DNA of 64,000 nt from Nitrospinota bacterium. Lineage in GTDB: Bacteria; Nitrospinota; Nitrospinia; Nitrospinales; VA-1. The position numbers and the translations under genes were made by a program. The first letter of the stretch is position 1, and each line of letters opens with the position of its first letter. Shown piece after piece: positions 1,656 to 58,950 of this stretch. The notes under the pieces are model-generated. The model saw only the letters and a list, made by a program, of their open reading frames with translations, ran no database searches and was not told where the DNA came from. The stretch covers positions 3,499 to 67,498 of the forward strand of contig DUZG01000001.1 in NCBI GenBank assembly GCA_013349585.1. The letters run 5' to 3'.

Positions 1656-3208
1656 TTGGAATATGAAAAGAGGCTTCATGGCAGAGAAGAGATGAAGAAA
1701 CCTATATCACTTAGCGAAATACAAAATCAATACTTTAAATTCATAGAGCATAATTTTGATGTTTTATATAAGGTCATGCTAGAGAAAAAATTAACTCCTC
1801 ATGATATCGGAATGTCATTGACAAAAAACTCCAATGAATACGAAAAGTGGACCAAAGATTTAGATAAGTTTCTATCTCTTATTGATGAATTCTGGGAATC
1901 TGCAGGTGAAATAGCACAAATGCATATTGATGACATGCATGGGAATGTTAAAGGTGTTTTTGGCGGCGATTTGTTTGCGTCACACGGTGAAAACATAGCG
2001 TCAAAATGCGGTATCTATACAGATACAATAGTCTTTCCAGATCCCTTTCTTCGAATAAAGTATATTTTTGAACAAAACAACAAAGAAGATCAAACTTATT
2101 ATCTAATAAAGCATGGTTTGAATATCCTTCAATACAAGCTGCTCGCATGTGCTGATATTAAAACCCCTATTGTAGCCATCCTTCCAGATCTATCTATCCT
2201 TGAGAATAATGAGCAAAAGCTTTTCTTTCAACTTGGGCAGAAAGACTCTCTATGACACTCAGAAAAACTTTTCGGACGAAAAATTAAGTCAGCTGAAGAA
2301 CTATTTGAATTTTTTCAGACCCTGGATACTATTGAAAAAGCTGTAGCTGAAATAAAAAAATGACAACAGGATGCTATTTGACACGACATGGAAAGAAGAT
2401 ACCCCTACTAAGCTAAGAAAAGCTATGGCAAAAGATAATATAAATTTGACGGGTTCACAGTCTCCAGGCCAAATATTGGTAGCGTAGTCAGTTAGCCGGC
2501 TGGGTATTTGCAATGAACTACTTGTCAAATCTAGAAGGCTCAACGGAACACCCATTATTGATGCCCCGACCTTCTTGGCAATATCTGGTATGGAAAATGG
2601 AATATAATGCCGATAGAGCCGAACAAGAAACCGAAGTTCAAAACTTAAATATCGTTAAAGGCTTACAGGAATTAGCAGGCAGTGATATGGAATGGCTTGG
2701 AAACATCCTTCCCGACGCTCTGATAGAAGTTCGCCAATAAGGTGCAATGGATGAGATTAGAGAGATTCTGGGAAACGGCGTAAACAATTTAGTTCAATCA
2801 AACCCCACCAACTTTCACCGAAGCCAAGATAAGATATTTGATAATATTAATGAGGCCTTTGAACAGCGTCAAAAAAATAAAAGAATTGCGTGAAAAAAAT
2901 GTAAATTTGCAGGAAAAGATATCGGGTCTTGGTTGGTAACGGGATTTTTGGGTATTACCGCAATTGCAACAGGAGTTCCGGTATGGGGCCTTGCTGCTAT
3001 TGCGGCTGATCAATTATTGGATGCTCCAAAATTAAAAGAAATTCCACAATCAATTCGTAACTTAGTTGCCGAAAATAACAAAGTTAATAAGTCATCTGTC
3101 GGAATGTTATTTAGTGTGAGTAAAAAAACTGAGGCCAACGTAAAAACCAAACGTCCACTTTTGGCCGATTTCTGCCAATTTATCCCGTTTTTATTTTCGA
3201 TTTTCTAA
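1656..3208 (+). pseudogene. Heavily degraded gene of unknown function (about 510 codons, putative C-terminal TM segment)
   Basis: Three ORF fragments (1656-2255, 2513-2740, 2933-3208) join into one reading. It has in-frame stops at 2253-2255 (TGA), about 2360 (TGA after an A7 run), 2738-2740 (TAA) and about 2890 (TGA), plus at least two frame changes between 2360 and 2590. The sequence between fragments still looks protein-like (HSEKLFGRKIKSAEELFEFFQTLDTIEKAVAEIKK; GAMDEIREILGNGVNNLVQSNPTNF). Confidence 0.6.
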
Positions 3209-3279
3209 CATTTTTTCAAAAGATATTTAACTATTTCCAGATGCACAATTATTGTGACAGGAAAAAATAGTATCGACCT

Positions 3280-4143
3280 CTAGAGTCCAGCTTCACGCTG
3301 GCAGCGGAAGCCGAAGGTTGGATTTTTCAGTTTTGCGTCTACCTTGTTACGAAAAGAAATTTTGGACTGATTATTGTAGCTGGTCCAGCCGCCTCCCTTT
3401 ACAATTTGCAAACCTTTGTTTTTTGTCTGCACCCATTCCCAAACATTGCCTGTCATATCCATGATTCCATAAGGGCTTGCGCCTACATCAAAAGAAGCCA
3501 CGGGTGCAACGGATAAATATCCGTCTTCTTTGCCAAACGTGTTGGCATGTTGAGGTAGAAACTCATTTCCCCAGGGCCAGGTGTTGGTCGAGTTGCCCCG
3601 GGCCGCAGCTTCCCATTCTTCTTCACTTGGTAAACGTTTGCCAGCCCATTGGCAATATTTTCGTGCCTGATTCCAGTTGATTCCCATGGCGGGGCATTGC
3701 GGGCAGGGTTTGCCATTTGTATAAGGCTTTTCACTATATAGCGGTTGGAATTTTTGAAAATTATCTACAGTTATTTCTGTCCTATCAATGTAGAAAGCCG
3801 AGAGTGTTACAAAATGGGAGCTGTTTGCATCGGGACGGGGGGTTCCACTTGCCGCTATTTTTTTTTCACCGACAAGGTATTTTCCCTGATTGATTAGGAT
3901 CATCAATGTCTGATCCTTCTCATTTAAAATAGTGGGAAGAAGAGAGGTGTTACTTGTTGTAAGTCGTGGAAGGCTTTTCAGTTTTTGAGGAGGTTTCTTT
4001 TTTGCCTGAACTGGTTTATTCTGGGATTTTTTATAGTAGCGTTCAGAGCTGTCCTGTTTTGCATATCTTTTTCGATGCTTCTTGGCAGGCGTGCAGGCAC
4101 TCACCCAGGTAAATATAAGGATGAAGGCAATAATCAGTCTCAA
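3280..4143 (-). CDS. FGE-sulfatase (SUMF1/formylglycine-generating enzyme) domain lipoprotein
   Basis: Lipobox WVSAC at the N-terminus. FGE-family motifs are present: RLPSEEEWEAAARG, MTGNVWEWV, VKGGGW, NPTFGFRC. The start overlaps the upstream TPR gene by 4 nt (ATGA). Confidence 0.8.
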   Translation of the reverse strand: MRLIIAFILIFTWVSACTPAKKHRKRYAKQDSSERYYKKSQNKPVQAKKKPPQKLKSLPRLTTSNTSLLPTILNEKDQTLMILINQGKYLVGEKKIAASGTPRPDANSSHFVTLSAFYIDRTEITVDNFQKFQPLYSEKPYTNGKPCPQCPAMGINWNQARKYCQWAGKRLPSEEEWEAAARGNSTNTWPWGNEFLPQHANTFGKEDGYLSVAPVASFDVGASPYGIMDMTGNVWEWVQTKNKGLQIVKGGGWTSYNNQSKISFRNKVDAKLKNPTFGFRCQREAGL

Positions 4144-4556
4144 TGTTCTTTCTGGCTCATGAGCGAATCCATTTTCCCTTTCAGGCGGCGATACTTTTTA
4201 TAGCTTGCTTCTGCTTCATCTTTCTTACCCATCAATTCGTAGGTGTAACCCAGGCTATACCAAGCGTTGTGATGGGTGGGGTCGATTTTTAAAACCGATT
4301 TAAATACTTGCTCAGCATCTTTAAATTTTTTCTGATAATTGTAGATACCTCCGAGACTATAATAGCCATCTACGTTATTTGCATCTTTCTCTATTGCTTT
4401 TAAAAAGGATTTTTTGGAGGAGTCATATTGTTCGTGATTTAAATGCTCCAATCCTTCCTGTACATATTCACCGCTATTTTTGTCGCTGCATTGAGTTAAA
4501 ATCATTCCTAACAGGATCAATGCTAAAAATTTATAGAAAGGGCGAATCATCTTCAC
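4140..4556 (-). CDS. TPR-repeat lipoprotein
   Basis: Signal peptide with lipobox (LTQC). TPR-like repeats are visible (YYSLGGIYNYQKKFKDAEQVFKSVLKIDPTHHNAWYSLGYTYELMGKKDEA). It is translationally coupled to the FGE-domain gene. Confidence 0.7.
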   Translation of the reverse strand: MKMIRPFYKFLALILLGMILTQCSDKNSGEYVQEGLEHLNHEQYDSSKKSFLKAIEKDANNVDGYYSLGGIYNYQKKFKDAEQVFKSVLKIDPTHHNAWYSLGYTYELMGKKDEAEASYKKYRRLKGKMDSLMSQKEH

Positions 4557-5850: not shown

Positions 5851-6684
5851 TTATTTTTTCTTGTGTAACGAATAGGAAACTCGGATACCACTAGTATATA
5901 TATCGGCCCAGTGGGAGGATTTTTTTTGCTGGGGTGTGAGCAAGTCGTGATAGGTACAAGGCCGGATTCCGTATGTCGACCAGTCCAGTTTTTTGAATTG
6001 AGCGTTCAGAGACTGAAACCAAATTTCAAGTAGCTCAGCGCTGGGTAATGTGATCAGGCTGAGGTCTTTGCTGCGGTAATCAAAGGAATGTGGCAGTGTG
6101 TAATCTTTTTTTTCGGGTTGCGTCAACGCAGTGAGAAGGATCGGAAGCTTTAGTGTTTCTTCATTGACGTTTTCATAAACCTGCGGTGCGTCTTTTCCTT
6201 GAATAGCAGCATAGGCTGCTGTGAAAGTGTCGAGGATCACAGTTTCTTTTGCCGCACGCAACATGAGCTTGAGCAGTCGATAAGGTTCAGTTGTGTAATA
6301 AAGCATCCCTAAGCAAAGCACAGTATCAAAACTTCCTTCCTCAACATTCTCCAGATATTGCAGGGCATCCCCAACGGCCATGGAATATTTTTCCTTCGCA
6401 ATATTGAGTTCCTGAAATAATTCCTGCCCCAAACGAATCATTTTTTCTTCCGTATCGATTCCCTGAATGAAATCCGCACCGGATTCTAAAGCCGCGTAAG
6501 CGAACGTTCCCATATGTGAGCCGACATCGAGAATTCTTTTCCCCTGGATATATTTCTGATTTTTTACCAGAAGATGGTCAAGTCTGGCATTGAGGCATTC
6601 GGGATGATATGGAATGGCCCATCTGGTTTTCCGGGTTTCGTGGGCGAGAAAGGGAGAATCGTCAGAAATTAGAGGTTTTTTCAT
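5851..6684 (-). CDS. Class I SAM-dependent methyltransferase
   Basis: Motif I ILDVGSHMGTFAYAALESGA and a post-I acidic residue (GIDTEE). Motif IV-like DTVLCLGMLYY. Confidence 0.7.
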   Translation of the reverse strand: MKKPLISDDSPFLAHETRKTRWAIPYHPECLNARLDHLLVKNQKYIQGKRILDVGSHMGTFAYAALESGADFIQGIDTEEKMIRLGQELFQELNIAKEKYSMAVGDALQYLENVEEGSFDTVLCLGMLYYTTEPYRLLKLMLRAAKETVILDTFTAAYAAIQGKDAPQVYENVNEETLKLPILLTALTQPEKKDYTLPHSFDYRSKDLSLITLPSAELLEIWFQSLNAQFKKLDWSTYGIRPCTYHDLLTPQQKKSSHWADIYTSGIRVSYSLHKKK

Positions 6685-7005
6685 ATCGAGATAAAAAAAT
6701 TATTTTTGTGCTTTTATGATTTTTTTGAGGCAATTTTAATGTAGCAGGAAAACCGAAACTATCCAATTTTAAAGGGGTTTCTATTCTATAGAAGGGGTCT
6801 TTTCTTAACTTAATCTGTTTTAATGGTTGTAGTTGTTTGATTTATTTGGAGTTATGGGTTTCTGTATAGAGGCGTAAAATATTATATTTAAAACCATCAA
6901 AACTGAAGTTATTTAGATGTTGGTTTATTTGTACGGCTCTTGTTTTATTGGGTGGAAAACCTGATAAATAAAATATTACCAGTTAATAAAATTAGCGAGT
7001 GAGTG

Positions 7006-7689
7006 ATGTCTTCTGTTGTTCAGATATTAAGTCCTCAAGCTGAAGAGTTGCAGGCCAAGCGGTGCGAGTTAGCAAAATTGCGCAAAAATCTGGCTGATCT
7101 TATTACTCAGGGCAAGTCGCGGTCTACAGTGGATTAGGCTTACAACGCGCTTAGCTATTTTCATAAGGCGGTTTACGATCAGCATCTGGTTCTGGAAGGG
7201 TTCAAAAGACCAGGGAAGAAATAATTAAATCCAGTAGTGCTTACCATTAGTGAGGCTAAAAGGATTGCGACTTCTGCTGAAAACTTGAAGCATTGATTGA
7301 TGATTGAAATAGCTTAAACCGCGGGGCTAAGGGTCTCTGAGCTGGTTGAGGTAAAGGTTCAGCATCTGAATCTGGAAAAGCTGAAAATATTTGTACCGGG
7401 AATCGGCAAACTGGGTGCCCGAACAACAATTTTTTCTATGGGTTTTAAAGATGCTTTACAAAGGCGGATTGGTAACAAAGGCCCGAATGATTATCTTTTT
7501 CTAAGTGAGAGAGGTGGAAATTTGACCACACGAAGTGTGACCAAGTTGTTCAAGGTTGCTTTGCAAACCTCGGGAGTTGAAAAGTAAGTAACTCCGCATT
7601 CGTTACGGCAGTCTTTCACAGATATCATGCTTGCCAAAGGAAACGATCAGGCTTTGGTGCAATCGTTATCAGGTCGTCGCGCCCTCTAG
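7006..7689 (+). pseudogene. Tyrosine recombinase / phage-type integrase relic; 5 internal stops and 3'-truncated before the catalytic Tyr
   Basis: A single frame from ATG 7006 reads ...AGLRVSELVEVKVQHLNLEKLKIFVPG...YLFLSERGGNLTTRSVTKLFKVALQTSGVEK*VTPHSLRQSFTDIMLAKGNDQALVQSLSGRRAL*. The integrase R and HxxR boxes are recognisable. Internal stops are TAG, TAA, TGA, TAA, TAA, and no frameshift is needed. Confidence 0.8.
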
Positions 7690-15037: not shown

Positions 15038-15955
15038 ATGTTCAATTTTCTGAAAAAAAAGGCAAAAGAGCCGGTAATTAAGGTGTTGGCCCGAGAAAGT
15101 ACCCAGTATAACGACATTTATGTCATTCAAAATGAAGATTACCGGGAGCTTTGGTTTAAGGGCAATGGCGACTATTTTCTGCAAAGTCGAGTGAATATCG
15201 AGCAGCAAAAACAATTGGCATTGGTTTATTCCAATATGATGATGGCATCTTTGCTTTTCTGTCCCAAGCCACAAAGATTATTAATGGTCGGATTAGGGGG
15301 GGCAGCGGTTACTAATTTTCTCAGCCAACAGTTCCCGAATTTGCACATTGATGTTGTGGAAATTGACCCCAAAGTAATTGAGGTTTCTAAAAAGTATTTT
15401 TATCTGCGTGAATCTAATCGTTATCGGGTTTTTGAAGAAGACGGCAGAGTGTTTATTCAGAAACGAAAAGGGCAGGAACCGTATGACTGGATTATTCTCG
15501 ATGCATTCAAAAGCGGGTCTATTCCATATCATTTAAAGACCTATGAGTTTTATAAAGAGATCCGCGCTATTTTAAAACCCGATGGAATCGTGGGCTCGAA
15601 CTTATACGGCAAGGGAAATTCTTTAAAACCTCGAGATACAAAAACCTTCATGTCGGTTTTTCCAAATATTTATTGTTTTGAGGATGACGAACGCGTTGCA
15701 ACCGTATTAATCGCCAATGGTGGGGAGCGTTGGTCTGAAAAAAAAATAAACGAAAGGGCAGCAATTTCTAATAAAATGCCCGAACCGTTTTCGATGCAGG
15801 AGGTTGCGAAAACCTATCGACCAGGAAAGTTTTTCAAAGAATCTGTAGCGAGGTTTGACGACCACTTTTCAGAGAAGGGTTTTATGCATGACGTGGGGAA
15901 AGAGAACCGATCAAGTGTTAAGCCCAGACGGTATCCGATAAAAAATATTCACTGA
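15038..15955 (+). CDS. Spermidine-synthase-fold (aminopropyltransferase-like) methyltransferase-family protein
   Basis: Motifs: LLMVGLGGAAVTNFL, VVEIDPKVIEVSKKYF, DGRVFI, DWIILDAF ... PYHLKTYEFY ... LKPDGI. Confidence 0.65.
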   Translation: MFNFLKKKAKEPVIKVLARESTQYNDIYVIQNEDYRELWFKGNGDYFLQSRVNIEQQKQLALVYSNMMMASLLFCPKPQRLLMVGLGGAAVTNFLSQQFPNLHIDVVEIDPKVIEVSKKYFYLRESNRYRVFEEDGRVFIQKRKGQEPYDWIILDAFKSGSIPYHLKTYEFYKEIRAILKPDGIVGSNLYGKGNSLKPRDTKTFMSVFPNIYCFEDDERVATVLIANGGERWSEKKINERAAISNKMPEPFSMQEVAKTYRPGKFFKESVARFDDHFSEKGFMHDVGKENRSSVKPRRYPIKNIH

Positions 15956-19577: not shown

Positions 19578-19925
19578 TTATTTGGGTTTCTGCGCCACAC
19601 CAGTATTATTTTCGTTATATTTAATTGTCCATTCATTGGAAGAGTCTATCTCTTTCTGCCAGATTTTTCATGTGTTCTGGCTCATCATACATTCGGCACC
19701 TTGAATCAGGTTCCAATGATCGAAACAATAGAGATGTCCCTTCTCCGAATTATTAACGGCGTTTCCTAAAATGATATAACTTTTTCCATGCCAGGAGCCG
19801 ACTTCAATAATCGTCCTTGGATTCTCCAGAAGTTAAATCATAGAGAAGTCGCGCATGTTCTTCAGGCGTATAGGGAGATGCAATATGCTGCGCCTGGTTC
19901 CAGATAGCGTTAAATATTATGTCGG
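19578..19925 (-). pseudogene. Relic of a class I SAM-dependent methyltransferase (Methyltransf_24-like), frameshifted and lacking a start
   Basis: The minus strand reads ...PYTPEEHARLLYDL in one frame. It then shifts to LLENPRTIIEVGSWHGKSYIILGNAVNNSEKGHLYCFDHW in another, and a further in-frame stop follows. No ORF of 60 aa or more is called here. Confidence 0.5.
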
Positions 19926-34430: not shown

Positions 34431-36140
34431 TCAGATTTTATCGGAGCGTTGGAATATATAGACTTTATCGGCGGAAATAGGAGATTTGAAAAGGTGTATT
34501 TGAATTTCGTAGGAATTATTGACCCTTTTTACCGGGGCATTCAATTCAAATTGTTCATATTGATTGTTTTTCAAAATGAATCTAATTTTTTTCTTTAAAG
34601 GGCTAGTTTTTTCCTCTGAATGAAGAGCCCATTGATCGCCTCGTAAAACGATCCAATCTGGTATGCTTTTGTTAGTTAGCTCGCTGTTATGAATCATCTT
34701 GAACCCTGTGTAAAAAGCAAGAGATTCAACTTCGTTGTCAATATAGCATGTTTCCCCCTTTTTCCCATGTATTTCAAAAAATGCAACAATTCCATTTAAG
34801 GGGCCTCGATAGGGGTTGGCAAGCTCTCCCCAGTATTGAAAAAAAATGGACTTGAATTTCACTTCCCGCATAAAAGTCTGGTAAACGCCTTTAAAGTACA
34901 AACTGGGTTGGGCGTCAGGTTGCGGGGATTGGAGTAATTGCTTAACTGGAACCAAGGGGCCCACGTGAATCAGGTTCGAAAAAATAAGAATGGCTGCAAA
35001 GAGGATTTTCTGAATTATGGAGCTTCTAAATAAATGTACGTTTATCCACCCTAACAGGGTAAAGAATATGGGAATGCTGGCGGCGATGTAATGCAATTGT
35101 GGAATGGAATGTAACGAAGCAGTTAGCAAAATAAAAAAAATGCAAATGAGTAAAAGCGAAATAGAACGATTGAATTTTTTTATAGGTAATAAAAATATCA
35201 AGGGAACCAATATAAGAGGGAAAATGTAGTTGTTTATTTGGAAAAGGAATCCCGCAAAATGTTTTAAATAGCCTAATGAAGAGGTGTCTATATATGGACT
35301 GGTGGAAGTGTAAAATTCGGCTATTTTTTTTGATAGAGCAGGAAGGAAAAATAGCCAGGGTAAACACAATAGAGCGGTAACGGCAGCAGGAATTTTAATC
35401 TTTCTTAGATTATTTCGATCAACTTCGTTTCTATAAATAAATAAATGAATTAGCATTCCTGTTATAAGGCCGGCAAACTCGACATACATTGTATGAAAAA
35501 AAATAATTGATGTAACGGTAAAGGGAACAGGATTCCATTTTTTCTTTTCAAAAATATCGATATAAAAAGAGAGCAGAATGGGAGTCAGTAATATAGGAAT
35601 GGCAACGTAACGAGAGGTTCTGAAATAAAGAAGCGCGGGAACACACGTGGCTAAAAATGTTGCAGCCAAAACGGATGCAGATTTATCCTGAGTGATGCGA
35701 ATTGCTAAATGATAAAGGCACCAGATGGAAAAAAAACCAGCTAGGGCGAAAGGTAGTCTGGCAGCAAAAGTATTGTTTCCTAAAAAATTTAATGAAATAG
35801 CCTGGAGATAATAGGGAACCCAGGTTCGATAAATAAACAGACCTTCGAAGATGTCAGCATAGGGCATGGTGTGGTTCAACCCATCTGAATGCATAGGCAA
35901 TCCATGCTTCAAGATTGTTGTCGAAACAAAAGTGTCTCCTCCCTCATCGACTTGCATTACACTGTCATCCAGACCGGTGAATATAGTTAAAAATGCAATG
36001 GGAAGAAGGAGAGTTAAGGCCAGATGAGACTTGAAAAATAATCGGATAGATGTCACTAGATACCCTATAATCAGGTCGTTTAAAACCCCGTTATTATACC
36101 CAAGAGTCTGCCTTGCTTGGGGCGAAAATTGGATCTGCAC
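34431..36140 (-). CDS. Polytopic GT-C-fold (ArnT/PMT-like) glycosyltransferase candidate
   Basis: More than 10 TM helices, a first-loop acidic motif VMQVDEGGDTF, and a soluble C-terminal domain of about 150 aa. It lies directly downstream of the ArnC-like GT2. Confidence 0.55.
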   Translation of the reverse strand: MQIQFSPQARQTLGYNNGVLNDLIIGYLVTSIRLFFKSHLALTLLLPIAFLTIFTGLDDSVMQVDEGGDTFVSTTILKHGLPMHSDGLNHTMPYADIFEGLFIYRTWVPYYLQAISLNFLGNNTFAARLPFALAGFFSIWCLYHLAIRITQDKSASVLAATFLATCVPALLYFRTSRYVAIPILLTPILLSFYIDIFEKKKWNPVPFTVTSIIFFHTMYVEFAGLITGMLIHLFIYRNEVDRNNLRKIKIPAAVTALLCLPWLFFLPALSKKIAEFYTSTSPYIDTSSLGYLKHFAGFLFQINNYIFPLILVPLIFLLPIKKFNRSISLLLICIFFILLTASLHSIPQLHYIAASIPIFFTLLGWINVHLFRSSIIQKILFAAILIFSNLIHVGPLVPVKQLLQSPQPDAQPSLYFKGVYQTFMREVKFKSIFFQYWGELANPYRGPLNGIVAFFEIHGKKGETCYIDNEVESLAFYTGFKMIHNSELTNKSIPDWIVLRGDQWALHSEEKTSPLKKKIRFILKNNQYEQFELNAPVKRVNNSYEIQIHLFKSPISADKVYIFQRSDKI

Positions 36141-36252
36141 TGTCCTTAAGAAAAGGGATTAAACGTTAATGTAATATATTAGCCTATGGTATCATCGCTT
36201 ATTTTGATATATCGGCTTTAAAAATCTCTGATGTTAGCTAAAAATTGAAATA

Positions 36253-36972
36253 ATGGAAACTCCTGAAATATCTGTAGTGGTATTAGCCTATCGAAGCGCA
36301 GCAACGATAACAAGTTTTGTTGATTCCCTTGTTGATTCCTTAGAAAATGAAAAATTATTGTGGGAAATTGTTCTGGTAGGAAATTACTTTGAAGGCGTTG
36401 GAGATCAAACTCCCGAGGTAGTTAGGGGTATTGCCGCCAAGGATTCACGAATAAAAGCGGTGGCCGAAATAAAAAAAGGCATGATGGGGTGGGATATGAA
36501 ATCTGGCTTGCAGGCAGCTACAGGAAGAACTTTGGCGGTAATAGATGGGGATGGGCAAATGCCCAGTAGCGATGTGATTCGCGTATACCAGTTAATGAAA
36601 ACAAATGGATTGGATTTCGCTAAAACCTACCGAGCAAAAAGGAATGATGGTTCTTATAGAAGGTTGATTTCCATTGTCTATAATATTTTATTCAAACTTC
36701 TATTCCCAGGAATCAATGCTTGGGATATGAATTCCAAACCTAAAATTATGACCCGTGAATTTTATGAAAAAGTGCATCTGGAGTCTAACGGATGGTTCAT
36801 CGATGCAGAAATTATGATTTTTGCCAGGCGGTTGCACGCCAAAATCGGAGAAATTGAAACCGTGTTCCACAGCATAGATTCTCGCCCTTCTTTTGTAAAA
36901 CCAAGTTCTATTCTTGAGTTTTTAGGTAATCTGTTTTGGTATAGAGTGAAAGAATTTTATACCCAAAAATAA
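36253..36972 (+). CDS. Family 2 glycosyltransferase
   Basis: Motifs: ISVVVLAYRS and VIDGDGQ (DxD), with the general GT-A layout. Confidence 0.7.
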   Translation: METPEISVVVLAYRSAATITSFVDSLVDSLENEKLLWEIVLVGNYFEGVGDQTPEVVRGIAAKDSRIKAVAEIKKGMMGWDMKSGLQAATGRTLAVIDGDGQMPSSDVIRVYQLMKTNGLDFAKTYRAKRNDGSYRRLISIVYNILFKLLFPGINAWDMNSKPKIMTREFYEKVHLESNGWFIDAEIMIFARRLHAKIGEIETVFHSIDSRPSFVKPSSILEFLGNLFWYRVKEFYTQK

Positions 36973-38922: not shown

Positions 38923-40052
38923 TCAAAGAGAACGATACAGGTTCGTATATTGATTCATGATATTTCCCCAGTCAAATCTGTTTTTGACTTCATTCTGGAT
39001 CCGACGCCCCATTTGTAGTCTTAAATTGCTATTTCTTAAAGATTCAATGCGCTCTTTTATTTCTTCAGGCTTTCCAGATATCTGGAAACCGGTTTCCCCT
39101 TCAATAATTATGTCCCGTGCAATGCCTACAGACGTAGAAATCAAGGGCAGGCCATGTGCGGCAGCTTCAAGTAGAGGCTGCCCAAAATTTTCGTATAGAG
39201 ATGGATAAACAAAAATGTCAGCCGATTGGTAAATAGTTTTTAATTCTAGCGGTGTTTTCTTTCCAACAAACGTCACCTTGTTTTCCAGGTTCAATTGCTT
39301 TGTAAGTTGTGTTAGTTCGTTTAGATAACCCGTGCGTGTGACACTGCTGGTTTTTTCTTCCCCGCCAGCTATGGTTAGATGAAAAGGAAAGTTCAACTGA
39401 CTTGCAGCTTGAAGGAGTAACTCAATTCGCCTGACACGGGCTATGCGGCCAACAAATAGGATTTGCATCTGTTCGAATACGCTTTGATCCTTCTTAATTC
39501 TTTCTACCTCAATGCCCATAGGAATAATATGGATTTTATCTTTTGCGATTCCAAACTCAAGAGCATCTTCGTATTCAAATTTTGAGGAAACGATTATAGC
39601 CTGTGCTCTTTTTGCCGAAGTCTTTAACGTGGCAATATCGTAAAGATGATAGGGCAATCTTTGCGCGAAAGAAGGAAGATAGTTTTTAAAACCGAGAAGT
39701 GAGCCGTGGGTATTTAAGACGAAGGGCTTGCTTTTGGTGCGAGCAAAAAAAAACCACTATCGGTTTGAAAATTACGGTAATTGTGGCTGTGTAAGATATC
39801 AAAGTTTTTCAAGTGGGACAACATTCGCGCGCTGACAAGATAGCGCATGATTTTTAATTGCGATTTGAATCGATGGACAGTAACCCTGCCAATTGTTTCC
39901 AATTTAGGGAGAGTGTGGGAAACATCGGAATAGGTCGTATAAACCGGAGATGAAACGCCTTTCTCCTCAAGACGATTAGATATTTGAAATGCCTGATTAA
40001 CGGGACCGCAAATATAAGGCAAAAAAGTTTCTATGGTACGTAAAACCTTCAA
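38923..40052 (-). pseudogene. Family 4 glycosyltransferase split by a frameshift in a T9 homopolymer (A9 on the plus strand, 39745-39753)
   Basis: The N-terminal fragment (39714-40052) ends ...HNYRNFQTDSGFFLLAPKASPSS*. With one extra T the frame reads ...DSGFFFARTKSKPFVLNTHGSLLGFKNYLPSFAQRLPYHLYD and runs into the C-terminal fragment (38923-39657), which carries the GT4 signature ENFGQPLLEAAAHGLPLISTSVGIARDIIIEGETG. Confidence 0.75.
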
Positions 40053-41264: not shown

Positions 41265-41534
41265 TCAAACAGGATCTTTCAATTCTAAAGCATTAAAAAT
41301 CACTTTAAAGAGGTATCAAAATTTTTAAACCAAAATTGTATCCTAAGTTTAAAATTTATGATTTGAGATAAGGCGAATATTTAAATTTTTGGAGCTACAG
41401 GTAATAAAACGGTATTTGTTTGAATAAACTTGACCCTTAATCGAAACCTATTGTATAGGAAATATAAGCTATTGTAAATAATAGGGTTATAGCTCGAATG
41501 GAAGCCCGGCGTGGATTTTTATAAATTGAGTACA

Positions 41535-41788
41535 GGTTTTGCAAATTTGCAAGACGAAATGCTTCTCGTACACGGGCTGTCATTACCTTCATAATGGCAT
41601 TAAGACTGTCCTAAGTGAACTGAAGCACTCTTGAGTTAAAAGCGGACCTTACTTCTACTCAAAAATTTAACCGTTGTAGAGCGGGAATTGTCATCGATCA
41701 GCTCCATTTTCCAAAAGAAATCAGACTTTCCTAGAATTCGGACGAGAATCCTTTTTCTATAGTCATTTTCCGTGATGGCTACCTTTCT
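41535..41788 (-). pseudogene. Truncated, frameshifted paralogue of the adjacent cNMP-binding gene
   Basis: Minus-strand VAITENDYRKRILVRILGKSDFFWKMELIDDNSRSTTVKFLSRSKV aligns with VGIIENTLEGQKLIKRLNENEIFGEMGLIHGRPRSATARALEDSVV of the intact copy. After a stop and a frame change, LNAIMKVMTARVREAFRLANLQN aligns with LPILKVLTSRLRETMKGTSQN. The N-terminal ~30 codons and a start codon are missing. Confidence 0.55.
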
Positions 41789-42179: not shown

Positions 42180-42400
42180 GTTTTAATTTTGTACTTATTA
42201 GTGATACAAGCAAAATTTAAGCCAATTATAATAAAAAAGTTAAAATAACAGCGTAATACTGTTCAAAAAGCGTATTCATAGATAAATATTAAATCTTAAT
42301 TTGTATTAATATATTTAAATGTAATTAAATAGTAAAAATATAATTTATATGTATTAATTTTTATAAATTTTTATTTTTGTGAGAAGCAGATTAGATTTGT
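42180..42400. other. Extremely AT-rich intergenic tract
   Basis: By eye G+C is under ~20% (e.g. taaatcttaatttgtattaatatatttaaatgtaattaaatagtaaaaatataatttatatgtattaatttttataaattttta). It lies upstream of the cNMP-binding gene. Confidence 0.8.
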
Positions 42401-42560
42401 TTGATTCTAGTGATAATCAGATTGAGTCTGCTAAAGTTATTTTTATTAAAATAGAGGAAAATGTGAGTTAAGGAGGGATACTATTGATTTTTTAATTCCT
42501 CTTTTAACGGTCTGATAGATTCAATTTTACCTTTGAGGAGGATATTTCGAAACTCACTGT

Positions 42561-43392
42561 TTATTTTTTAGAGGAGTTCCGACGAAAGAAGGGGGTTTGT
42601 TTAACCTTAATACGGTTTTTTGATCTCACATTGTGCTGAGAGTGAAAGATACGATTAAACGATTTTATATGATTCAGAGCTTCTTCAGCGTTAGGGGTTC
42701 TTTTTATAAGTAGGCGGTCTTCAGTAGATGCAAAGCCGTTTTCTAGCAAAAGAGAGTCCAGTAAATCGAGACAACCATCGAAATAATCATCCTCCTTATG
42801 GTCGAGCAAGGCAATGGATCTGGCATGCACTTTCCCGTTTGGAATAAGGTCAGGTTTTTAAAGCCTTCGTCTATAGTGCCCAATCCAGCTGGAATAATTA
42901 CTGTGGAGTGCGACTCTTTTATAAATACCAGTTTTGAGTAAAAAAATATTTTAACTACATGAGGTTAGCAGAATCGTAAATAAAAGAGTTTGTCGCTTGT
43001 TCGTGAGGTAGTTTTATATTCAATCCGAAACTATTGTCGACAAAGGCTCCACGGTTCGCGGCTTTCATAATTCCTCCACCTGCGCCGGAGTTAATCATGA
43101 AGCCATTTTCAACGAGGCTTTTCGCCAACTCGTAATTAAGGTCTGATTCAACAACTCTGACCGAGCTAAATAAGGCTACTTCCCGTATTTCTCGATAAGG
43201 TTTGAAAATTTTAAATGAAGATCTCAGTTCCTTAAGGGCTTGATTAATGAGTTTATAGTCCCCTCGATCATTATGTTCTATCCCCCCCATTAGCAAAAGA
43301 GTGATTAGAATTTCTTCGAATAGAGACTCGTCACCACAATTTTTGGGAAGCTTACGGATAAATGCCGGGATATCCTGGGGAGATGGGGTCAT
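42561..43392 (-). pseudogene. LOG-family (TIGR00730, cytokinin riboside 5'-monophosphate phosphoribohydrolase-like) gene with two frameshifts
   Basis: Fragment 1 (42955-43392) has INSGAGGGIMKAANRGA and LPHEQATN. The middle piece is in another frame: KIFFYSKLVFIKESHSTVIIPAGLGTIDEGFKNLTLFQTGK (PGGxGTxDE / QT.K motifs). Fragment 3 (42561-42830) carries the C-terminal part in a third frame. Confidence 0.7.
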
Positions 43393-43509
43393 TTTTATTA
43401 AAATTCATTATATGAGCAAATATTTTCAAAGTCTCAATTAAGTTGCTACAATCACTCTAGAAAACTTGTCCCGCACATATGGGGGCTTAATTTGTAAAGG
43501 ATTTCAATT

Positions 43510-43707
43510 ATGAATGATAAAGTATTAATCATTTCCATATTAAGCCTGCTGGGAATCGGCTTTGTTGCTGTACTTTTTGTTGCCGTGCCGTGGCTTATAA
43601 ATTACGCATTGCCCGACTGGGAAAATACTTTATTGGATAGTGGGATCGTAATGGTTGCCATAGTTCTTTTTGTATATGGCTTCTATATGAATACTCGAAT
43701 GCATTAG
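43510..43707 (+). CDS. Small two-TM membrane protein, paralogue 1 (65 aa)
   Basis: AAAGGA RBS 8 nt upstream. Two hydrophobic helices separated by PW...PDW. Confidence 0.55.
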   Translation: MNDKVLIISILSLLGIGFVAVLFVAVPWLINYALPDWENTLLDSGIVMVAIVLFVYGFYMNTRMH

Positions 43708-43716
43708 AGTATCCAT

Positions 43717-43914
43717 ATGGATGAAAAAAAACTGATAATAATTCTGACAAGCCTACTGATATTGGGCTTTCTATCCCTGTTTATCATAATAATTCCTTGG
43801 GCCAATTGGAGCCGTATTCCAGATTGGAAAGCAATAGCAACTGACAACCTCTTAATGAGTCTCATCGCCGCAGCCATTGGTTACGGGATCTATATAGGTT
43901 CCAAGACTATGTAG
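43717..43914 (+). CDS. Small two-TM membrane protein, paralogue 2 (65 aa)
   Basis: Same length as the neighbour, with 19 of 65 identical residues by my alignment. Shared landmarks are K4, LII, SLL, GF, PW, PDW, D, YG.Y. The spacer between the two genes is 9 nt. Confidence 0.55.
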   Translation: MDEKKLIIILTSLLILGFLSLFIIIIPWANWSRIPDWKAIATDNLLMSLIAAAIGYGIYIGSKTM

Positions 43915-53286: not shown

Positions 53287-53343
53287 GTGTATTACGCTAT
53301 TATTTCGCAGCCATCTAATGCTGTCAACCCTTTTCCTTTCTAA

Positions 53344-54351
53344 ATGAGAATGAATCGAGTGACCCGATTACAAAGATTTAAAAACTTTCTGATAGCAGGA
53401 GCTGTCGTCTCGGTTTTATTTAATAGCCCTGCATTTTCCGAAGAGATAAACACAACCCAGGCGCCCAACGTGCCACCTCATACCTCGCGGATAATGCCTG
53501 AAACGGTGGTGGTAAAATTTGAGGCGAAAGAGTTTATCGGTCCTTTGGACGGCAAAAACTATAAGTTCTGGAGCTTTAACGGAACCGTTCCTGGGCCTAT
53601 GATCCGCGTACGCCTTGGCGATACGGTGGAATTTCATCTTTCCAACGATAGCGCTAATCAGTTTCCGCATAATATTGATCTTCATGCCGTCAACGGACCG
53701 GGAGGCGGGGCGGCAGTCACCCTGGTGGCTCCAGGTGAGGAAAAAGTATTTCAATTTAAAACGCTGCATCCAGGACTCTTTGTTTACCATTGCGCTTCAC
53801 CTGTACCCAGCATCCCGGCGCATATTGCCAACGGCATGTACGGACTGATTCTGGTTGAGCCGAAGCATGGGTTGTCACGCGTGGACCATGAGTTTTATGT
53901 TTTTCAGAGTGAATTTTTCACCCAGCCTTCAGAAGATGAAGATGTGCTGGAATTTTCGCTGGAAAAAGGCATGGCAGAACAAGCGGATTATGTCGTATTC
54001 AATGGTAATTCGGGCGCATTGATGGGGGACAACGCTTTGCAGGCGGAAGTGGGAGACAAAATAAGAATCTATTTTGGCAATATAGGTCCCAACGGAGCTT
54101 CTTCTTTCCATGTTATTGGCGAAGTCTTTGACGAGGTTTATGTGGAAGGTGCATTGAACGGGATCACTAATAAAAACGTGCAAACCACCCTGGTTCCCTC
54201 AGCTGGCACCGCTATTGTAGAATTCAAGGTAGACATTCCTGGGGATTATTTGTTGGTCGACCACAGTATATTCAGAATCAATAAAGGAGCGGTGGGTATG
54301 CTTACTGTCACTGGCGAAGAAAACCCGGAGATTTTTCGAGCTCTTGATTAA
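53344..54351 (+). CDS. nirK: Copper-containing nitrite reductase
   Basis: Signal peptide, then the cupredoxin signatures HNIDLHAVNGPGGGA (T1/T2 Cu His) and VYHCASPVPSIPAHIANGMYGLILVEP (Cys/His/Met ligands), and the second-domain motif HVIGEVFD. Confidence 0.9.
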   Translation: MRMNRVTRLQRFKNFLIAGAVVSVLFNSPAFSEEINTTQAPNVPPHTSRIMPETVVVKFEAKEFIGPLDGKNYKFWSFNGTVPGPMIRVRLGDTVEFHLSNDSANQFPHNIDLHAVNGPGGGAAVTLVAPGEEKVFQFKTLHPGLFVYHCASPVPSIPAHIANGMYGLILVEPKHGLSRVDHEFYVFQSEFFTQPSEDEDVLEFSLEKGMAEQADYVVFNGNSGALMGDNALQAEVGDKIRIYFGNIGPNGASSFHVIGEVFDEVYVEGALNGITNKNVQTTLVPSAGTAIVEFKVDIPGDYLLVDHSIFRINKGAVGMLTVTGEENPEIFRALD

Positions 54352-54365
54352 AGTCTTTCACTAGT

Positions 54366-54461
54366 GAACTTTTTCATAATAGCTGATGATCTGTTTTAAC
54401 CGTTTGAATTTCTCAGCACGGATTTTGGAATTCAAAAGTTTCTGTCTTGCCCAATGGGGTT
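54366..54461 (-). repeat. Copy A of a diverged ~96-bp repeat (relic of a gene 3' end)
   Basis: It aligns without gaps to 57000-57095 at roughly 70% identity by my hand count. The minus strand translates to ...LEPHWARQKLLNSKIRAEKFKRLKQIISYYEKVH*. Confidence 0.65.
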
Positions 54462-54594
54462 CTAACTTCAAGAAATTAGGATAATGGGCCTGCCCACGCT
54501 AAAAAAACTTAATTTCCTGTGAGGCTAATCCATTACCTTTTATTAATCAATAAATTAAGCGTTTATATTTTAAGGAAATGATAATCTGCGATTC

Positions 54595-56835
54595 ATGACT
54601 TCTTTTAATTCAAAATTTTTATTATTTCTGGTGGGGTTGTTTTTATTGACTGTGATTGTATTTCGAGGTGTTCTCGATAACGGGTTTGTTCTGAATTGGG
54701 ACGATTTGGAATACGTTACTGAAAACCCCATGGTTCAGAAATGGCCTAATTTTTTTGAGATGACCACTTCATTTTACGCTGCGAACTGGCATCCGCTAAC
54801 TTGGTTTTGACATGCATTGGATTATCAATTATATGGCTTGAATCCTTGGGGTCATCATTTAACAAATTTGTTGTTGCATGGATTAAATACCTGCTTGGTA
54901 TTTGTGCTATTTGTCTTGTTGGTAGGTAGAGGGAGAGAGGGTTCGGATAATGGTGTGTATATAGGGGGCATTTTTACAGCTCTTCTATTTGGCTTGCATC
55001 CTTTGCGTGTTGAATCCGTAGCCTGGGTTTCTGAACGTAAGGATTTGCTTTGTGGCTTCTTTTTCTTTTCTACCATTGCAGGCTATTGTGCGCTTATGTG
55101 CGCGAGAAAAAACGTTTGGGATATAGCCTTCTGATTTTTTTTCTTTGCATTGGCCATGATGTCCAAGCCGATGGCTGTAACATTACCTATTGTCCTTTTG
55201 CTTTTAGATATTTTTCCTTTGGAACGTTTGCGTTTGACAAAAGACCTTCTCCCCCTTTGTATAGAAAAAATTCCTCTCTTTGCTTTGAGCCTGTTAGGTG
55301 GAGTGCTGACCCTATTGGCGCAGAGCACTACCGGTGCAGTCAGGACATTGCAAGAAACCTCTCTTGCTGACCGGATCATAAATTCTTTCCAAACCCTCTG
55401 GGCATATATAGAAAAAACATTTTGGCTTCAGGACCTGCTTCCGTTTTATCCATTTTTGGAAAACCCTTCCCTGCTCAGCATGAAATTTTTACTGGGATTG
55501 ATTTTATTTCTTGCGATAACTCTGCTTAGTTTTTATCAATGGAGGAAGGGCAACCCTGTATGGCTTGTAGCATTGCTATTTTACCTGATCACAATGGCAC
55601 CAGTTATTGGCATCATCAAAGTGGGGGCACAGGCGATGGCAGATCGTTACACCTACATCCCTACTCTAAGTCTTGCTTTTTTATCTGGAGCAGGGCTAAT
55701 GAACTTGTGGCAACATAATAAGATTCGATCAGGAATAATTTTGGTCACCGCTATCATGGCTTTTGCTTTAAATAACTTATCTGCTAAACAGATCAGAATT
55801 TGGCACGATGGAGAGTCTCTGTGGATACCCGTAGCGGAAAAGTTTCCTGAGAAGGTTTATCATGCCCATGCGAACCTTGCTTCATTTCATTTCCAAGAAG
55901 GTCGACTTAAAAAGGCCGAAGATCAATTGAAAATAGCAATGAAAATTCAACCCAATCAGGTCGACACGCTTTTTTATCTGGGAATGGTTTATACAGATCA
56001 AGGTCGGCTTGCTGAGGCTAAGGAATTATTGGAAAAAGCCTTATTGCTGAATGCTAAAGATGAAAGAGTACTTTATCGGTTAGGTGTATTGTATGAAAAA
56101 TTAGGTCAAGAGAATCTTGCACAAAATGAATATAACAAGGCCCTGACCTTAAAACCTGAGTTAGAACCGGTGCGGCTTCGACTCGGTCAGCTTTATTCGA
56201 AAGCAGGACGATTTAAGGAGGCCGAAGAACAATTTAAAAAAGTGCTGGAACTCAATGCAGAATCTGAGGGAGCGAGGAATAATTTAGGAGTACTGTATTA
56301 TCAAAATGGCAGATTTGAGCAGGCTGAAGCGGAATATTTGCGGGTTATAAAAACTTGGCCCCGCAAAGTGCAAGCCTACAACAACCTGGGTATTCTCTAT
56401 TACGAAACGAAAAAATATGAGGATGCGGAAATTATTTACCAAAAGGTTTTGGAGCTAGACCCAAGCTATATTGAAGCAAAAAATAATTTCGGGGTTCTAA
56501 ACCTGGCGATGAATAAAACAAAGGATGCCCTAAGTCTATTGCAGTCTTCAAAATCCATGGACCCTAACCGTGTTAATACGCTTTACTACCTGGGTATGGC
56601 TTATATGGCTGAAAGAAACTGGCTATCTGCCCAGACGGAATTCAGAGCAGCGTTGTCTTTGAATTCAGATAATGCAGATATATACGACAAACTGGGTATT
56701 GTATTAGCTCAAGAAGGAAAGTGGAAAAAATCACGGGAAGCTTTTCTATCGGCACTTCGGCTAGACCCTTTGCATTTTTCCGCCAAGGGAAATCTTCAAC
56801 GGTTGGAAAATAAAATAATAGCAAACAGTCAATAA
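54595..56835 (+). pseudogene. TMTC-like protein (PMT_2/DUF1736-type GT-C membrane domain plus C-terminal TPR array) interrupted by two in-frame TGA codons
   Basis: The three ORF fragments (54595-54810, 54817-55134, 55150-56835) are all in one frame. The only interruptions are TGA at 54808-54810 (ANWHPLTWF*HALDYQLYGLNPWGHH) and TGA at 55132-55134 (VWDIAF*FFFFALAMMSKPMAVTLPIVLLLLD). The C-terminus holds about 10 TPR repeats. Confidence 0.75.
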
Positions 56836-56999
56836 AAGGTTAATTGGTTCATTGAAATGGACTAAACATCGGGGCTGGGTCAAGAAAACCGAGGGATATT
56901 TCGAGTCCGCGATTAATCTATCATTAGAGGATTAAATAGAAATTAGTGACACTTTAATTTCTTTTTCGATGCTCGGGTTCGTCGGCTGATTTCCGAAGC

Positions 57000-57095
57000 G
57001 AACTTTTTCGTAATAGTCGATGGTCTGTTTTTCTTGATGGGAATTTTCAGTGGGGATGTTGGAGTTCAATAGTTCCCGCGCGGTTCAATGGGGTT
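57000..57095 (-). repeat. Copy B of the diverged ~96-bp repeat (relic of a gene 3' end)
   Basis: The minus strand translates to ...YEELQKRLEKNGIKIKPH*TARELLNSNIPTENSHQEKQTIDYYEKVRFGNQ..., which is homologous to copy A. A TGA sits where copy A has TGG (Trp). Confidence 0.65.
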
Positions 57096-57136
57096 TTATT
57101 TTGATGCCGTTCTTTTCAAGACGCTTTTGCAATTCT

Positions 57137-58950
57137 TCATACAACAATACCGCTTGCGATGATGGCGGTGAAAACCCACTTTTTCTTAAAAGAAAAATAT
57201 AGCCAACCATTACCAGCAGGATCAATAACGTCCATCTTTGATTCGATATCTACTCTTTCCATTCCAATGAAGTCAGATTTTTCAGCGAGTCCATAGCATC
57301 GCGTCCACCGGAGCGGAAGAACCGGATCATGTCGGCTTGATGGTTGACGGAATAACGGATGATATAACGCTGCCAGTTCATCCGTAGGAGGTCGAGGGCT
57401 TGTTTCAGGGGGTTGAGTTGCGGGACAGCTGCTTGCCGAAGCATCTGGCGGGGTTCGGTCAAACACCGCCCAGCTCACTCCAGCTAGGTAAGCTTCGACC
57501 CAGGAATGGGCATGGCTTTGGGACTATAAGGTGATTTCCCCATTCGTGCCATTCGGCACCCACAAAACCGTTGACCAGTCGGGCGGGCACACCGGCTGCC
57601 CGAAGCAGGATGACCATATCAGAAGCAAAACATTCGCTGTGCCCTTCTTTTCTACTAAATAGAAAATGTTCCAGCGCGGTTTTATCGGGGTCGTTTTTCA
57701 TTTCCAGCGTATAAGCAAAATTGCTGAAATGATTGAGAATGTTAAACGCTTTTTCTCGAGCTGAATTGGCAGAATAGGTCAGTTTTGCCGCTAAAATTTT
57801 TGTTGCTGTACTGATTTTTGGAGGTTGCAAAAACCGTTCAGGAAAAACAGTTTCATCGGGATGTGGAAGCTCAAGATTGTAGGTTCTATTCGGATCAGAT
57901 ATTTCAGAGGTTAGCCTATATTTTTTGGGGCCAGACTGCGCACGACCGGTTTTTAAAACGAATCCTTGATCCATGTTCAGTCTTGTGAAATTTCCATCGA
58001 CAAAAACGGGGATGCCATGTGTGAACAAATATGGAATATCAAAGGATTCCATACAAACGATTTACTCAACCACCTCGGTGGGTCGAGATACCTTGAAGAG
58101 GCTGAGTCCATGTCCCGGTTTATTTGACAGACTGAATCCGTTGTTCAAGGTGGGGTTCCAGGTCTTACCGTTGTAATGGTCCAACACCACGCCGCGCCAG
58201 TGGATGTGAGATTTGGGCCGGTAAGGCTGACCGTTTCGGGTATATTCAACGCGCATCACCACCGATGAGTTTTGTTTTATTTTGCCGACATCCCCGAGTG
58301 TGACAACATCCGAAAACCCGGTGATACGGGGAGAAGACGTGTTCAAGGCGATGAAGATGACAGCAGTCATTATAAAACTGAGAGCAACCAGTCCGGTGGC
58401 CCATCCTAGTAAGGTTTTATTGAGCTTCTGATTTTTACCACGGTTTTTAAATAGTTTGGGTGGACTGCGACTGCTAACTTGTTCCGCCATCAGGTGGTAA
58501 GAAATCAGACACCAACTCAACACCAGATAAAAGCTGAGAAAAACAAGACCGAAGGCCAGATCCTAGACGTAAAGGGCTCCGATTAAAAGGCAGACGATAG
58601 CAATGAGATAGCCGAACAGATATCGTTGAATTCTGTTTTAAAAATGAAGTGGGTATAAAGAAGGTAGACTAGGAACCCTGATATTAGATTAAGAATGGGT
58701 AAGCCAAATCCAAGGTAGAGTGAAATCACCAACAGCAAGCCCCAGCTAGAACTTGGAAATTTTTTGAGGGAGCGACACGAATCGTTGCAAGATATTCTAA
58801 CGTGTAACAATAGATCAATCCGGCAATAAGAATTCCTCCCGTAAAGACAGAAAAAATCTCACTCAACGTCAGACAGGTCAGGGCCAATCCGGCGAAGAGG
58901 TAGTTGCTGATGAGGAATCCGGTACGAAGGTTCAGGCTGAAGTTTGACAA
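57137..58950 (-). pseudogene. TgpA-like transglutaminase (N-terminal multi-TM region plus transglutaminase core plus C-terminal domain), fragmented
   Basis: At least five overlapping or abutting fragments cover it. TM pieces are at 58726-58950 and 58583-58810, with an in-frame TAG near 58560. The 58062-58523 piece is a linker and beta region. The 57459-58052 piece carries the core GHSECFASDMVILLRAAGVPARLVNGFVGAEWHEWGNHLIV. After that the frame must shift to read SWAVFDRTPP (57137-57478) and again for NPLKQALDLLRMNWQRYIIRYS (57250-57462). Confidence 0.75.

Follow-up and report, generated by a model that had tools for sequence, protein, structure and literature searches.

Young pseudogenes and a conserved out-of-frame glycosyltransferase gene in 64 kb of a marine Nitrospinaceae genome

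Introduction

Since eight loci in a stretch of 64,000 nucleotides from a Nitrospinota bacterium (contig DUZG01000001.1 of assembly GCA_013349585.1; G+C content 41%), hereafter called the window, carry genes that are interrupted by in-frame stop codons or frameshifts, the question arises whether these interruptions are real and what they tell about the organism. Marine Nitrospinaceae account for much of the nitrite oxidation in the ocean and are known mostly from metagenome-assembled genomes (MAGs). A preliminary description of the window had taken all eight loci as accessory genes in decay, a view that holds for seven of them and fails for locus 4, a selected gene with a conserved frameshift. 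The most probable overall explanation is, from our point of view, that seven dispensable genes have decayed since the split from sister species and that a glycosyltransferase gene encoded out of frame has been kept by selection. Recognisable homology was found for all eight loci at or near the coordinates first proposed (by Pfam and, for locus 1, through a family of 247 members):

Locus 1, 1630-3208, + strand: pseudogene of an uncharacterised family of ~555 amino acids (tblastn against P0237)
Locus 2, 7075-7689, + strand: tyrosine recombinase relic, Xer/integron-integrase-like (Phage_integrase Pfam 1.5e-23; NCBIfam)
Locus 3, 19578-19925, - strand: relic of a class I S-adenosylmethionine (SAM) methyltransferase (Methyltransf_24) with internal stops (Pfam 2.5e-6)
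Locus 4, 38923-40052, - strand: GT4 glycosyltransferase, two overlapping frames that meet at nine consecutive T (T9) (GT4 Pfam 1e-32)
Locus 5, 41524-41788, - strand: relic of tandem paralogues that bind cyclic nucleoside monophosphates (cNMP), pieces in two frames (tblastn; Pfam 0.0068, below threshold)
Locus 6, 42397-43392, - strand: pseudogene of a LOG/TIGR00730-family Rossmann protein (Lysine_decarbox/LOG Pfam 3e-11)
Locus 7, 54595-56835, + strand: pseudogene of a 745-amino-acid membrane protein with C-terminal TPR repeats (many TPR Pfam families)
Locus 8, approximately 56932-58965, - strand: pseudogene of a TgpA-type transglutaminase, TgpA_N + Transglut_core + DUF4129 (Pfam TgpA_N 8.5e-26, Transglut_core 1.4e-18)

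Results

Conspecific contigs were gathered from ENA, JGI and Logan assemblies by exact-protein matching with four open reading frames (ORFs) of the window; the nirK-like ORF (53344-54351) gave no exact-protein match, and its called start probably differs. The 39 conspecific contigs, which stem from at least 12 independent metagenome assemblies, are 98.3-100% identical to the window in mostly gap-free alignments, and a 96-kb ENA contig (ERZ27247681 k141_1208554) spans the entire window with about nine single-nucleotide polymorphisms (SNPs) and two 2-bp indels. Between samples the population is near-clonal (99.9-100% identity). Homologues come from sources named Nitrospinaceae, Nitrospinae or Nitrospinota, and a scan of a species-level genome collection with the cyclophilin found no conspecific genome; its best match was a MAG of an uncultured Nitrospinaceae at 73% identity, the others belonging to unrelated phyla. 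The host lineage is an uncultured planktonic marine member of the Nitrospinaceae, a nitrite oxidiser that is near-clonal across many samples.

When all deviations of the independent contigs from the window were listed across the eight loci, the lesions proved, almost without exception, to be exactly the same in 4-10 independent assemblies for each locus. Loci 2, 4 and 5 show no difference in any of the 4-8 covering assemblies, and loci 1, 3 and 6 show few SNPs only, plus a private inserted A at 3121 in contig L016. The sole SNP at the latter three loci that removes a lesion is a G>T exchange at 2254, by which TGA becomes TTA (Leu) in L012 and L013. At locus 8, a CG at ~57520 is missing from the window and present in 10 of 10 other assemblies; the cause is either a mutation private to this strain or a mistake in the source of the window. 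Altogether, we count at least 17 nonsense substitutions along with 11 frameshift indels, of which one is private to the window, and three larger deletions. The seven true pseudogenes occupy ~8.1 kb, or 12.6% of the window; this is less than the ~8.9 kb (~14%) of interrupted DNA first reported.

One could argue that stops and frameshifts in metagenome-assembled sequence are assembly or consensus errors, and the missing CG and a 2-bp difference at 56914, both of which the window shares with none of 10 other assemblies, could indeed be errors of its source. The remaining lesions, however, recur in independent assemblies that were produced from different samples by different pipelines, several of them are common to strains that differ elsewhere, and nonsense substitutions are not a typical type of error. 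Because independent contigs carry the same lesions, assembly error is excluded for nearly all of them, and as a general explanation it is extremely improbable. The two earlier assertions that the lesions are real and that many of them are nonsense substitutions thus withstood the comparison.

It is harder still to conceive that readthrough or recoding of the in-frame stops, by selenocysteine, pyrrolysine or an altered genetic code, keeps the genes functional. Two TGA codons within one frame at locus 7 would fit this idea, but TAA, TAG and TGA all occur among the lesions, frameshifts are also present at stop-bearing loci, and neighbouring genes terminate normally at TAA, TAG or TGA. Furthermore, at 54808 a conserved Ser codon (TCA/TCG) of a transmembrane segment has given way to TGA, and the TGA at 55132 does not lie in the frame that the orthologues use. 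Judged by stop types, orthologue frames and frameshifts, recoding is refuted as an explanation of the lesions. A true recoding signal is found in prfB (25265-26384, + strand), an intact gene with the canonical programmed +1 frameshift, in which a short ORF ends with ...LRGFL and a stop codon and the protein resumes in the +1 frame; this shows that recoding signals are read normally in the host.

The seven loci other than locus 4 are true, young, lineage-specific pseudogenes. For five of them (loci 1, 2, 6, 7 and 8), sister species possess intact syntenic orthologues, at locus 1 according to the gene map only. The pairwise ratio of non-synonymous to synonymous substitution rates (dN/dS) between pseudogenes and intact orthologues is 0.12-0.21, compared to 0.02-0.21 for intact neighbours and 0.18 for two intact orthologues of locus 7, and is hardly above that of intact genes, so that relaxed selection is not visible by this measure. 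Low ratios are expected if the genes were inactivated long after the species had split; most of the divergence appears to have accrued under selection, with inactivation as a recent event. The lesion states are still polymorphic (the codon at 2253 reads TGA or TTA, locus 7 exists as three haplotypes, and L016, L038 and the window have private indels), in agreement with the earlier notion of ongoing decay. The segments that bear the lesions vary between species, namely the slot next to nrdJ, the block of nirK, locus 7 and TgpA, and the glycosylation region, in which several genes differ from sister contig L139. The core genes, which had been described as intact, are indeed full length wherever sister contigs permit a comparison (gene maps, tblastn).

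Within strains that are otherwise 99.9% identical, we found tracts of 5-25% divergence at 34567-36500 (L003), 25300-29150 (L022, where the portion at 27.6-29.2 kb is just 76% identical), 54900-55950 (L034/L038) and 62800-63450 (L036). These tracts indicate homologous recombination with other lineages.

The lesions of locus 1 were counted against P0237, a family member of 561 amino acids with 55% identity, and the closest sister contigs, P0002 and P0003, served as gene maps. Instead of the minimum of three stops and two frameshifts given earlier for 1656-3208, we found four in-frame stops and two frameshifts (frames +1, +2 and +3 in tblastn) together with an in-frame N-terminal deletion of ~57 codons and an ATG>ATA exchange at the start codon. 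Apart from the TTA variant of L012 and L013, the locus is identical in five assemblies. An exhaustive HMMER search with its 199-amino-acid ORF yielded the 247 relatives, typically of 545-560 amino acids. The conceptual translations have no Pfam match, and PADLOC and NCBIfam give for the family just a sub-threshold Avs1c-like match at the N-terminus (NCBIfam 5e-10); this weak likeness may hint at a role in defence and is a lead rather than an assignment. The slot between nrdJ and an FGE-sulfatase gene (window 1260-3280; L138 845-2222) is a variable hot spot, which holds the locus 1 family here and in one sister contig, the latter with an intact gene of 515 amino acids, and a HEPN-domain protein plus a 179-amino-acid gene in L138.

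At locus 2, sister contigs that were reached via homologues of a 395-amino-acid protein carry an intact integrase gene of 261 amino acids upstream of an mqnC-like gene. Compared to the intact L138 orthologue, 204 codons align without gaps at 85% amino acid identity and contain five nonsense substitutions (CAG>TAG at 7135, AAA>TAA at 7222, AGA>TGA at 7294, TAT>TAA at 7315 and GAA>TAA at 7585); the native stop is kept, the first 57 codons are lost, and the sequence is identical in four assemblies. The five stops without indel originally seen at 7006-7689 hence hold over these 204 codons, to which a 5' truncation has to be added:

6900-7098, + strand: junction of a ~3.7 kb deletion, where the 5' remnant of a DnaJ-domain gene runs into codon 58 of the integrase

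In blastn, window 5861-7098 corresponds to L138 5316-6592, and window 7075-7683 to L138 10288-10895. One deletion (window 6685-7098 vs L138 6347-10288) took the DnaJ-domain gene (256 amino acids), a Sel1-repeat gene (770 amino acids, 14 repeats in Pfam) and the 5' end of the integrase gene, and all three genes are kept in at least three sister contigs. As a separate observation, nonsense changes make up 5 of the 30 non-synonymous codon differences at locus 2, against an expectation of ~1.8-2.3 (P ~0.03-0.07), and the 612 bp are free of indels; the excess of stops is mild and marginal.

Loci 7 and 8 lie side by side downstream of nirK. A metagenome scan with the locus 7 protein found relatives in other species at 77-89% amino acid identity, with intact orthologues on contigs L120, L121, L122, L123, L124, L125 and L127. 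Synteny is shown for L120 and L125, the other five being without shared window-type neighbours. L125 retains the gene order MobBA-NirK-locus 7-TgpA-PPIase-DUF4325-DJ-1-DUF8201-radical SAM with an intact locus 7 protein of 745 amino acids and a TgpA gene of 691 codons. The lesions of locus 7 are a TCA>TGA exchange at 54808, where all orthologues have a Ser codon (TCA/TCG), an inserted GC at 55090-91 and an inserted T (T7>T8) at 55135-42. As the TGA at 55132 sits in the 45-nt out-of-frame stretch between the two insertions, where the native frame reads CTG ATT, the initial reading of 54595-56835 as a gene with two in-frame TGA and no indel has to be corrected: one nonsense codon is genuine, and the second TGA results from the +GC and +T insertions. 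Three haplotypes are found, namely GC+/T8 (window, L030-32 and L035), GC+/T7 (L037) and GC-/T7 with an open frame (L034 and L038), the last of which lies on a recombination tract of ~1 kb with 5-6% divergence, where the site of the second lesion is undamaged. The dN/dS relative to L120 is 0.21, and the inactivation of locus 7 is therefore very recent.

For locus 8, tblastn with the intact L125 TgpA revealed four frameshifts (frames -1, -3, -2, -3, -1), four stops, of which two replace Gln, one replaces Trp and one falls where the alignment has gaps, and a 30-bp (10-codon) deletion, more than the minimum of four disruptions proposed at 57137-58950. One of the frameshifts is the missing CG of the window, by which the Transglut_core ORF, 305 amino acids long in ten other assemblies, is split into 113 and 197 amino acids; a +G at 57407 is private to L038.

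The block of nirK, locus 7 and TgpA (53300-59000) and the DUF8201/PMT_2 gene (60762-62558) are absent from the more distant contig L040, in which MobBA abuts the cyclophilin gene; because of this absence, nirK is placed on a variable segment flanked by decaying genes. Beyond the 3' end of the window (~1-2.4 kb; L030 15900-17350), the gene of a phosphonate-binding protein is broken by 4-5 stops and a frameshift, and the adjacent ABC ATPase gene by two stops and a frameshift, both being intact in L125 (317 and >234 amino acids, respectively). As such, the run of pseudogenes extends past the window.

Contig L139, which was reached via homologues of a GT2 protein, has an intact LOG/TIGR00730 gene of 343 amino acids at the position that matches locus 6. 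Relative to this orthologue, locus 6 contains three frameshifts (frames -2, -1, -3, -2 in tblastn) and three stops, all of them Glu>stop, across 42397-43392, more than the two frameshifts first counted at 42561-43392, and it is identical in six assemblies apart from two SNPs. Between this pseudogene and a carotenoid-synthase-like gene, on the opposite (+) strand, lie two tandem ORFs of 65 amino acids each (43400-43900). Gene callers report both in every assembly as well as in sister L139, which also keeps an A8 run at 43724-43731.

The attribution of locus 5 (41535-41788 in the preliminary description) to the cNMP-binding family stands, whereas the idea of a single truncated paralogue has to be replaced by pieces of tandem paralogues in two frames. 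The sister contigs have three intact tandem cNMP-binding genes (127, 140 and 121 amino acids in L139; 127, 143 and 121 in L142; likewise three in L143), and the window has one plus the relic, which matches residues 37-69 of cN140 (61%, 3e-8) and residues 65-121 of cN121 (47%, 4e-9) in different frames in tblastn. The neighbouring intact cNMP-binding gene gave no tblastn match with the relic, which is recognised via the sister paralogues only. At locus 3, the Pfam match reaches 28.7 bits over profile positions 1-41 of 105, and the sequence is identical in nine assemblies. Scans for tRNA genes and Rfam families found no tRNA gene and no family at the gathering threshold in the 64-kb window.

The frameshift at T9 that had been described at 38923-40052 is real as well, but the GT4 gene at locus 4 is not decaying. 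The tract (A9 on the + strand, 39745-39753) splits the gene into ORFs of 112 and 244 amino acids. Frame 0 runs through ...NYRNFQTDSG FF up to GGT TTT TTT TTG, and the -1 frame continues with (F)ARTKSKPFVLNTHGSLLG...; one added T gives ...SGFFFA..., collinear with full-length homologues, which read ...SGFFFA/S... at the junction. L139, which has 78% DNA identity here, shows the identical T9 and the same -1 offset, as do L142 and L143, whereas L141 has T8 and L140, the only full-length relative at 74% identity, has T10. Counted by species, the tract is T9 in three, T8 in one and T10 in one.

That the gene is split at a homopolymer into two ORFs is what an ordinary frameshift pseudogene would look like. 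Against this speaks that the same tract and frame offset occur in species between which synonymous sites are saturated (proportion of synonymous differences, pS, 0.63-0.77; of non-synonymous differences, pN, 0.07-0.14, between the three T9 species). In each of the three frameshifted species, both halves are free of stops over 372 codons, and dN/dS is 0.05 in the N-terminal and 0.05-0.10 in the C-terminal part, similar to intact neighbours. The run is unbroken in all five species, with flanking codons that vary synonymously, whereas of the 11 other A/T runs of at least 8 that can be aligned to L139, one is conserved (a second count gives 9 of the 11 as not conserved). Among the 120 clusters listed as homologues of the fused sequence, those at 67-99% identity comprise 68 C-terminal-only ORFs (244-290 amino acids) versus a single full-length protein, P0386 (74%, T10); the other full-length proteins among the clusters listed appear at no more than 60% identity. 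Decay of the ordinary kind is hence very unlikely at locus 4 and, as judged from the substitution pattern, refuted at the level of selection. By the same comparisons, locus 4 is a conserved frameshift gene under purifying selection and not a pseudogene.

It could further be imagined that the two halves are separate polypeptides, which form a split GT-B enzyme without any frameshifting. Gene callers indeed place a start (TTG or ATG at 'LPYHLYD') for the 244-amino-acid C-terminal ORF in most relatives, but the 29 codons between the tract and this start are conserved as protein (ARTKSKPFVLNTHGSLLGFKNYLPS...) and collinear with full-length homologues. Because of this conservation, translation must enter the -1 frame at the tract. 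A split at this point would also cut within the N-terminal Rossmann domain, and we consider two independent polypeptides unlikely.

Discussion

If the seven pseudogenes are taken together, the following course of events can be envisaged. Seven dispensable genes within 64 kb, and at least two just outside, were inactivated after the split from sister species that still have intact copies. Once disabled or truncated by a deletion, such genes would drift neutrally and gather stops by substitution, small indels, for which homopolymers and short repeats are frequent sites, and further deletions; some lesions still vary between strains, and recombination tracts bring in divergent alleles. The affected sites are variable, island-like segments, namely the slot by nrdJ, the remnant of an integrase-linked element, an envelope glycosylation region and the insert between nirK and TgpA. 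The comparisons show directly that the lesions are real and young and that intact orthologues exist; as for the cause, we infer relaxed selection on accessory functions, possibly aided by a low effective population size or a recent sweep.

Three observations weigh against this explanation. Differences between strains are not denser in the pseudogenes than elsewhere (0.76 vs 0.79 per kb), so that a loss of constraint does not show over this span of time, and an apparent enrichment of indels in the strain comparison is inflated by the same indel being counted in many contigs. Loci 3 and 5 are the weakest cases owing to their low similarity, with no comparator for locus 3. Lastly, the ~75 kb of one contig that were examined may over-represent flexible regions.

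The last point also bears on the possibility that the window samples a genome-wide reduction, with at least 10% pseudogenes, as in host-restricted or bottlenecked lineages. With about 7 pseudogenes per 64 kb (9 if ~75 kb are considered), the density amounts to ~110-120 per Mb, compared to ~6-32 per Mb in reference nitrifier groups when median counts are divided by median genome sizes (18-101 pseudogenes annotated by the Prokaryotic Genome Annotation Pipeline, PGAP, in genomes of 1.4-3.8 Mb; PMC9239080). The near-clonal population and the youth of all pseudogenes in the window would also be in line with such a process. However, neither insertion sequence (IS) elements nor transposases appear in the gene maps of the window, its housekeeping genes are all intact, and the presence in many marine metagenomes suggests a free-living planktonic life; since the lesions concentrate in species-variable segments, an extrapolation to the genome is unsafe. 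A genome-wide reduction therefore has some chance of being correct, albeit a small one, and the host or niche restriction that had been suggested for this organism is not supported.

Reductive evolution with mass pseudogenisation is exemplified by Leptospira borgpetersenii, Mycobacterium leprae and Sodalis. The window resembles these cases in its recently inactivated genes with multiple stops and frameshifts and in its low-diversity population, but it differs from them in that IS elements have not expanded here, host association is not indicated and the core genes show no decay. Lineage-specific unitary pseudogenes also occur in the flexible islands of free-living bacteria. With these, the window shares that dispensable genes (envelope, defence-like and transport functions) are hit in species-variable segments, that lesions vary between strains and that the housekeeping neighbours are intact; what sets it apart is a local density (~12.6% of 64 kb) that is high for an abundant bacterium of the plankton, the youth of all pseudogenes and the predominance of nonsense substitutions over small indels.

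Genome streamlining, the other process that had been brought forward, is not supported, as it predicts few pseudogenes and a high coding density, whereas pseudogene DNA makes up more than a tenth of the window. Like the streamlined planktonic nitrifiers, the host is a planktonic nitrifier lineage that loses accessory functions, but streamlined genomes contain a median of 8-13 pseudogenes as opposed to 18-101 in the reference groups, and a pseudogene-rich region is the opposite signature (PMC9239080). Overall, nothing in the window is categorically new; the density of pseudogenes and the conserved out-of-frame glycosyltransferase gene are notable.

The question that follows for locus 4 is how a gene that stays out of frame could be used. 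From its conservation, the gene is probably still expressed, by transcriptional slippage or phase variation. We tentatively propose that the GT4 enzyme is permanently encoded out of frame at a conserved T8-T10 tract and that it is either expressed via programmed slippage of RNA polymerase or used as a heritable ON/OFF switch, a proposal that seems to us quite possible, if somewhat short of probable. Slippage on the homopolymer is the most economical mechanism. In the favoured version, slippage of RNA polymerase on the U/T run would add a nucleotide and fuse both ORFs; alternatively, DNA (replication) slippage at the tract would lead to phase variation of the enzyme. Locus 4 has the features looked for in transcriptional slippage, namely a T run of ~9 nt at the junction of overlapping ORFs, with tract and ORFs conserved under purifying selection. 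Two points count against the proposal. All five assemblies of the host species show T9, with no variation of the tract among them; and T9/A9 runs are also found inside intact ORFs without a frameshift (3858-3866, 15738-15746 and 27798-27806), where slippage, if frequent, would be costly.

Programmed -1 ribosomal frameshifting, a further mechanism considered, appears unlikely. Although the slippery heptamer U UUU UUU occurs, the sequence downstream of the tract gave no sign of a conserved RNA structure (-3.5 kcal/mol, covariation term 0), and the relative with T8 needs a different shift than the T9 species.

Slippage of this kind has precedents. As described in PMC1088944, which cites Penno et al. 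(2005), an extra U at a run of nine T fuses two ORFs in mxiE of Shigella flexneri, and genes of IS elements with 9T or 9A runs are expressed by transcriptional slippage. The likeness to locus 4 lies in overlapping ORFs that are joined only by one extra nucleotide at T9 and in the conservation of tract and ORFs. Unlike them, locus 4 encodes a GT4 enzyme of a marine chemolithoautotroph, has relatives with T8, T9 or T10 and is known from DNA alone.

With regard to the switch, the phase-variable tracts of Campylobacter, Haemophilus and Neisseria are mostly poly-G/C or tetranucleotide repeats. Homopolymer contingency loci in glycosyltransferases for surface glycans are described from these pathogens (PMC3025981, PMC2651432). 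Locus 4 is similar in that a homopolymer lies inside a glycosyltransferase ORF within a cluster for cell-envelope glycosylation and differs in length between lineages. In contrast to the mixed ON and OFF states of the pathogen loci, its tract is poly-T, almost all relatives have the gene out of frame (68 clusters to one among those listed) and five assemblies of the host species are identical.

For annotation, the consequences are twofold. Broken genes in Nitrospinaceae MAGs can be real, young and strain-variable, and annotators should neither "repair" nor ignore them, while locus 4 teaches that automated pipelines split or discard a conserved frameshift gene in dozens of relatives. For the organism, the decay suggests that a single widespread, near-clonal population has recently undergone a sweep or a weakening of selection. 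If the proposal for locus 4 is true, an abundant free-living chemolithoautotroph of the sea would possess, in the GT4 tract, a conserved device for recoding or contingency, perhaps one that tunes a surface glycan against phage. Should slippage or phase variation indeed operate there, the control of surface glycosylation by homopolymers would reach from pathogens to free-living bacteria of the ocean.

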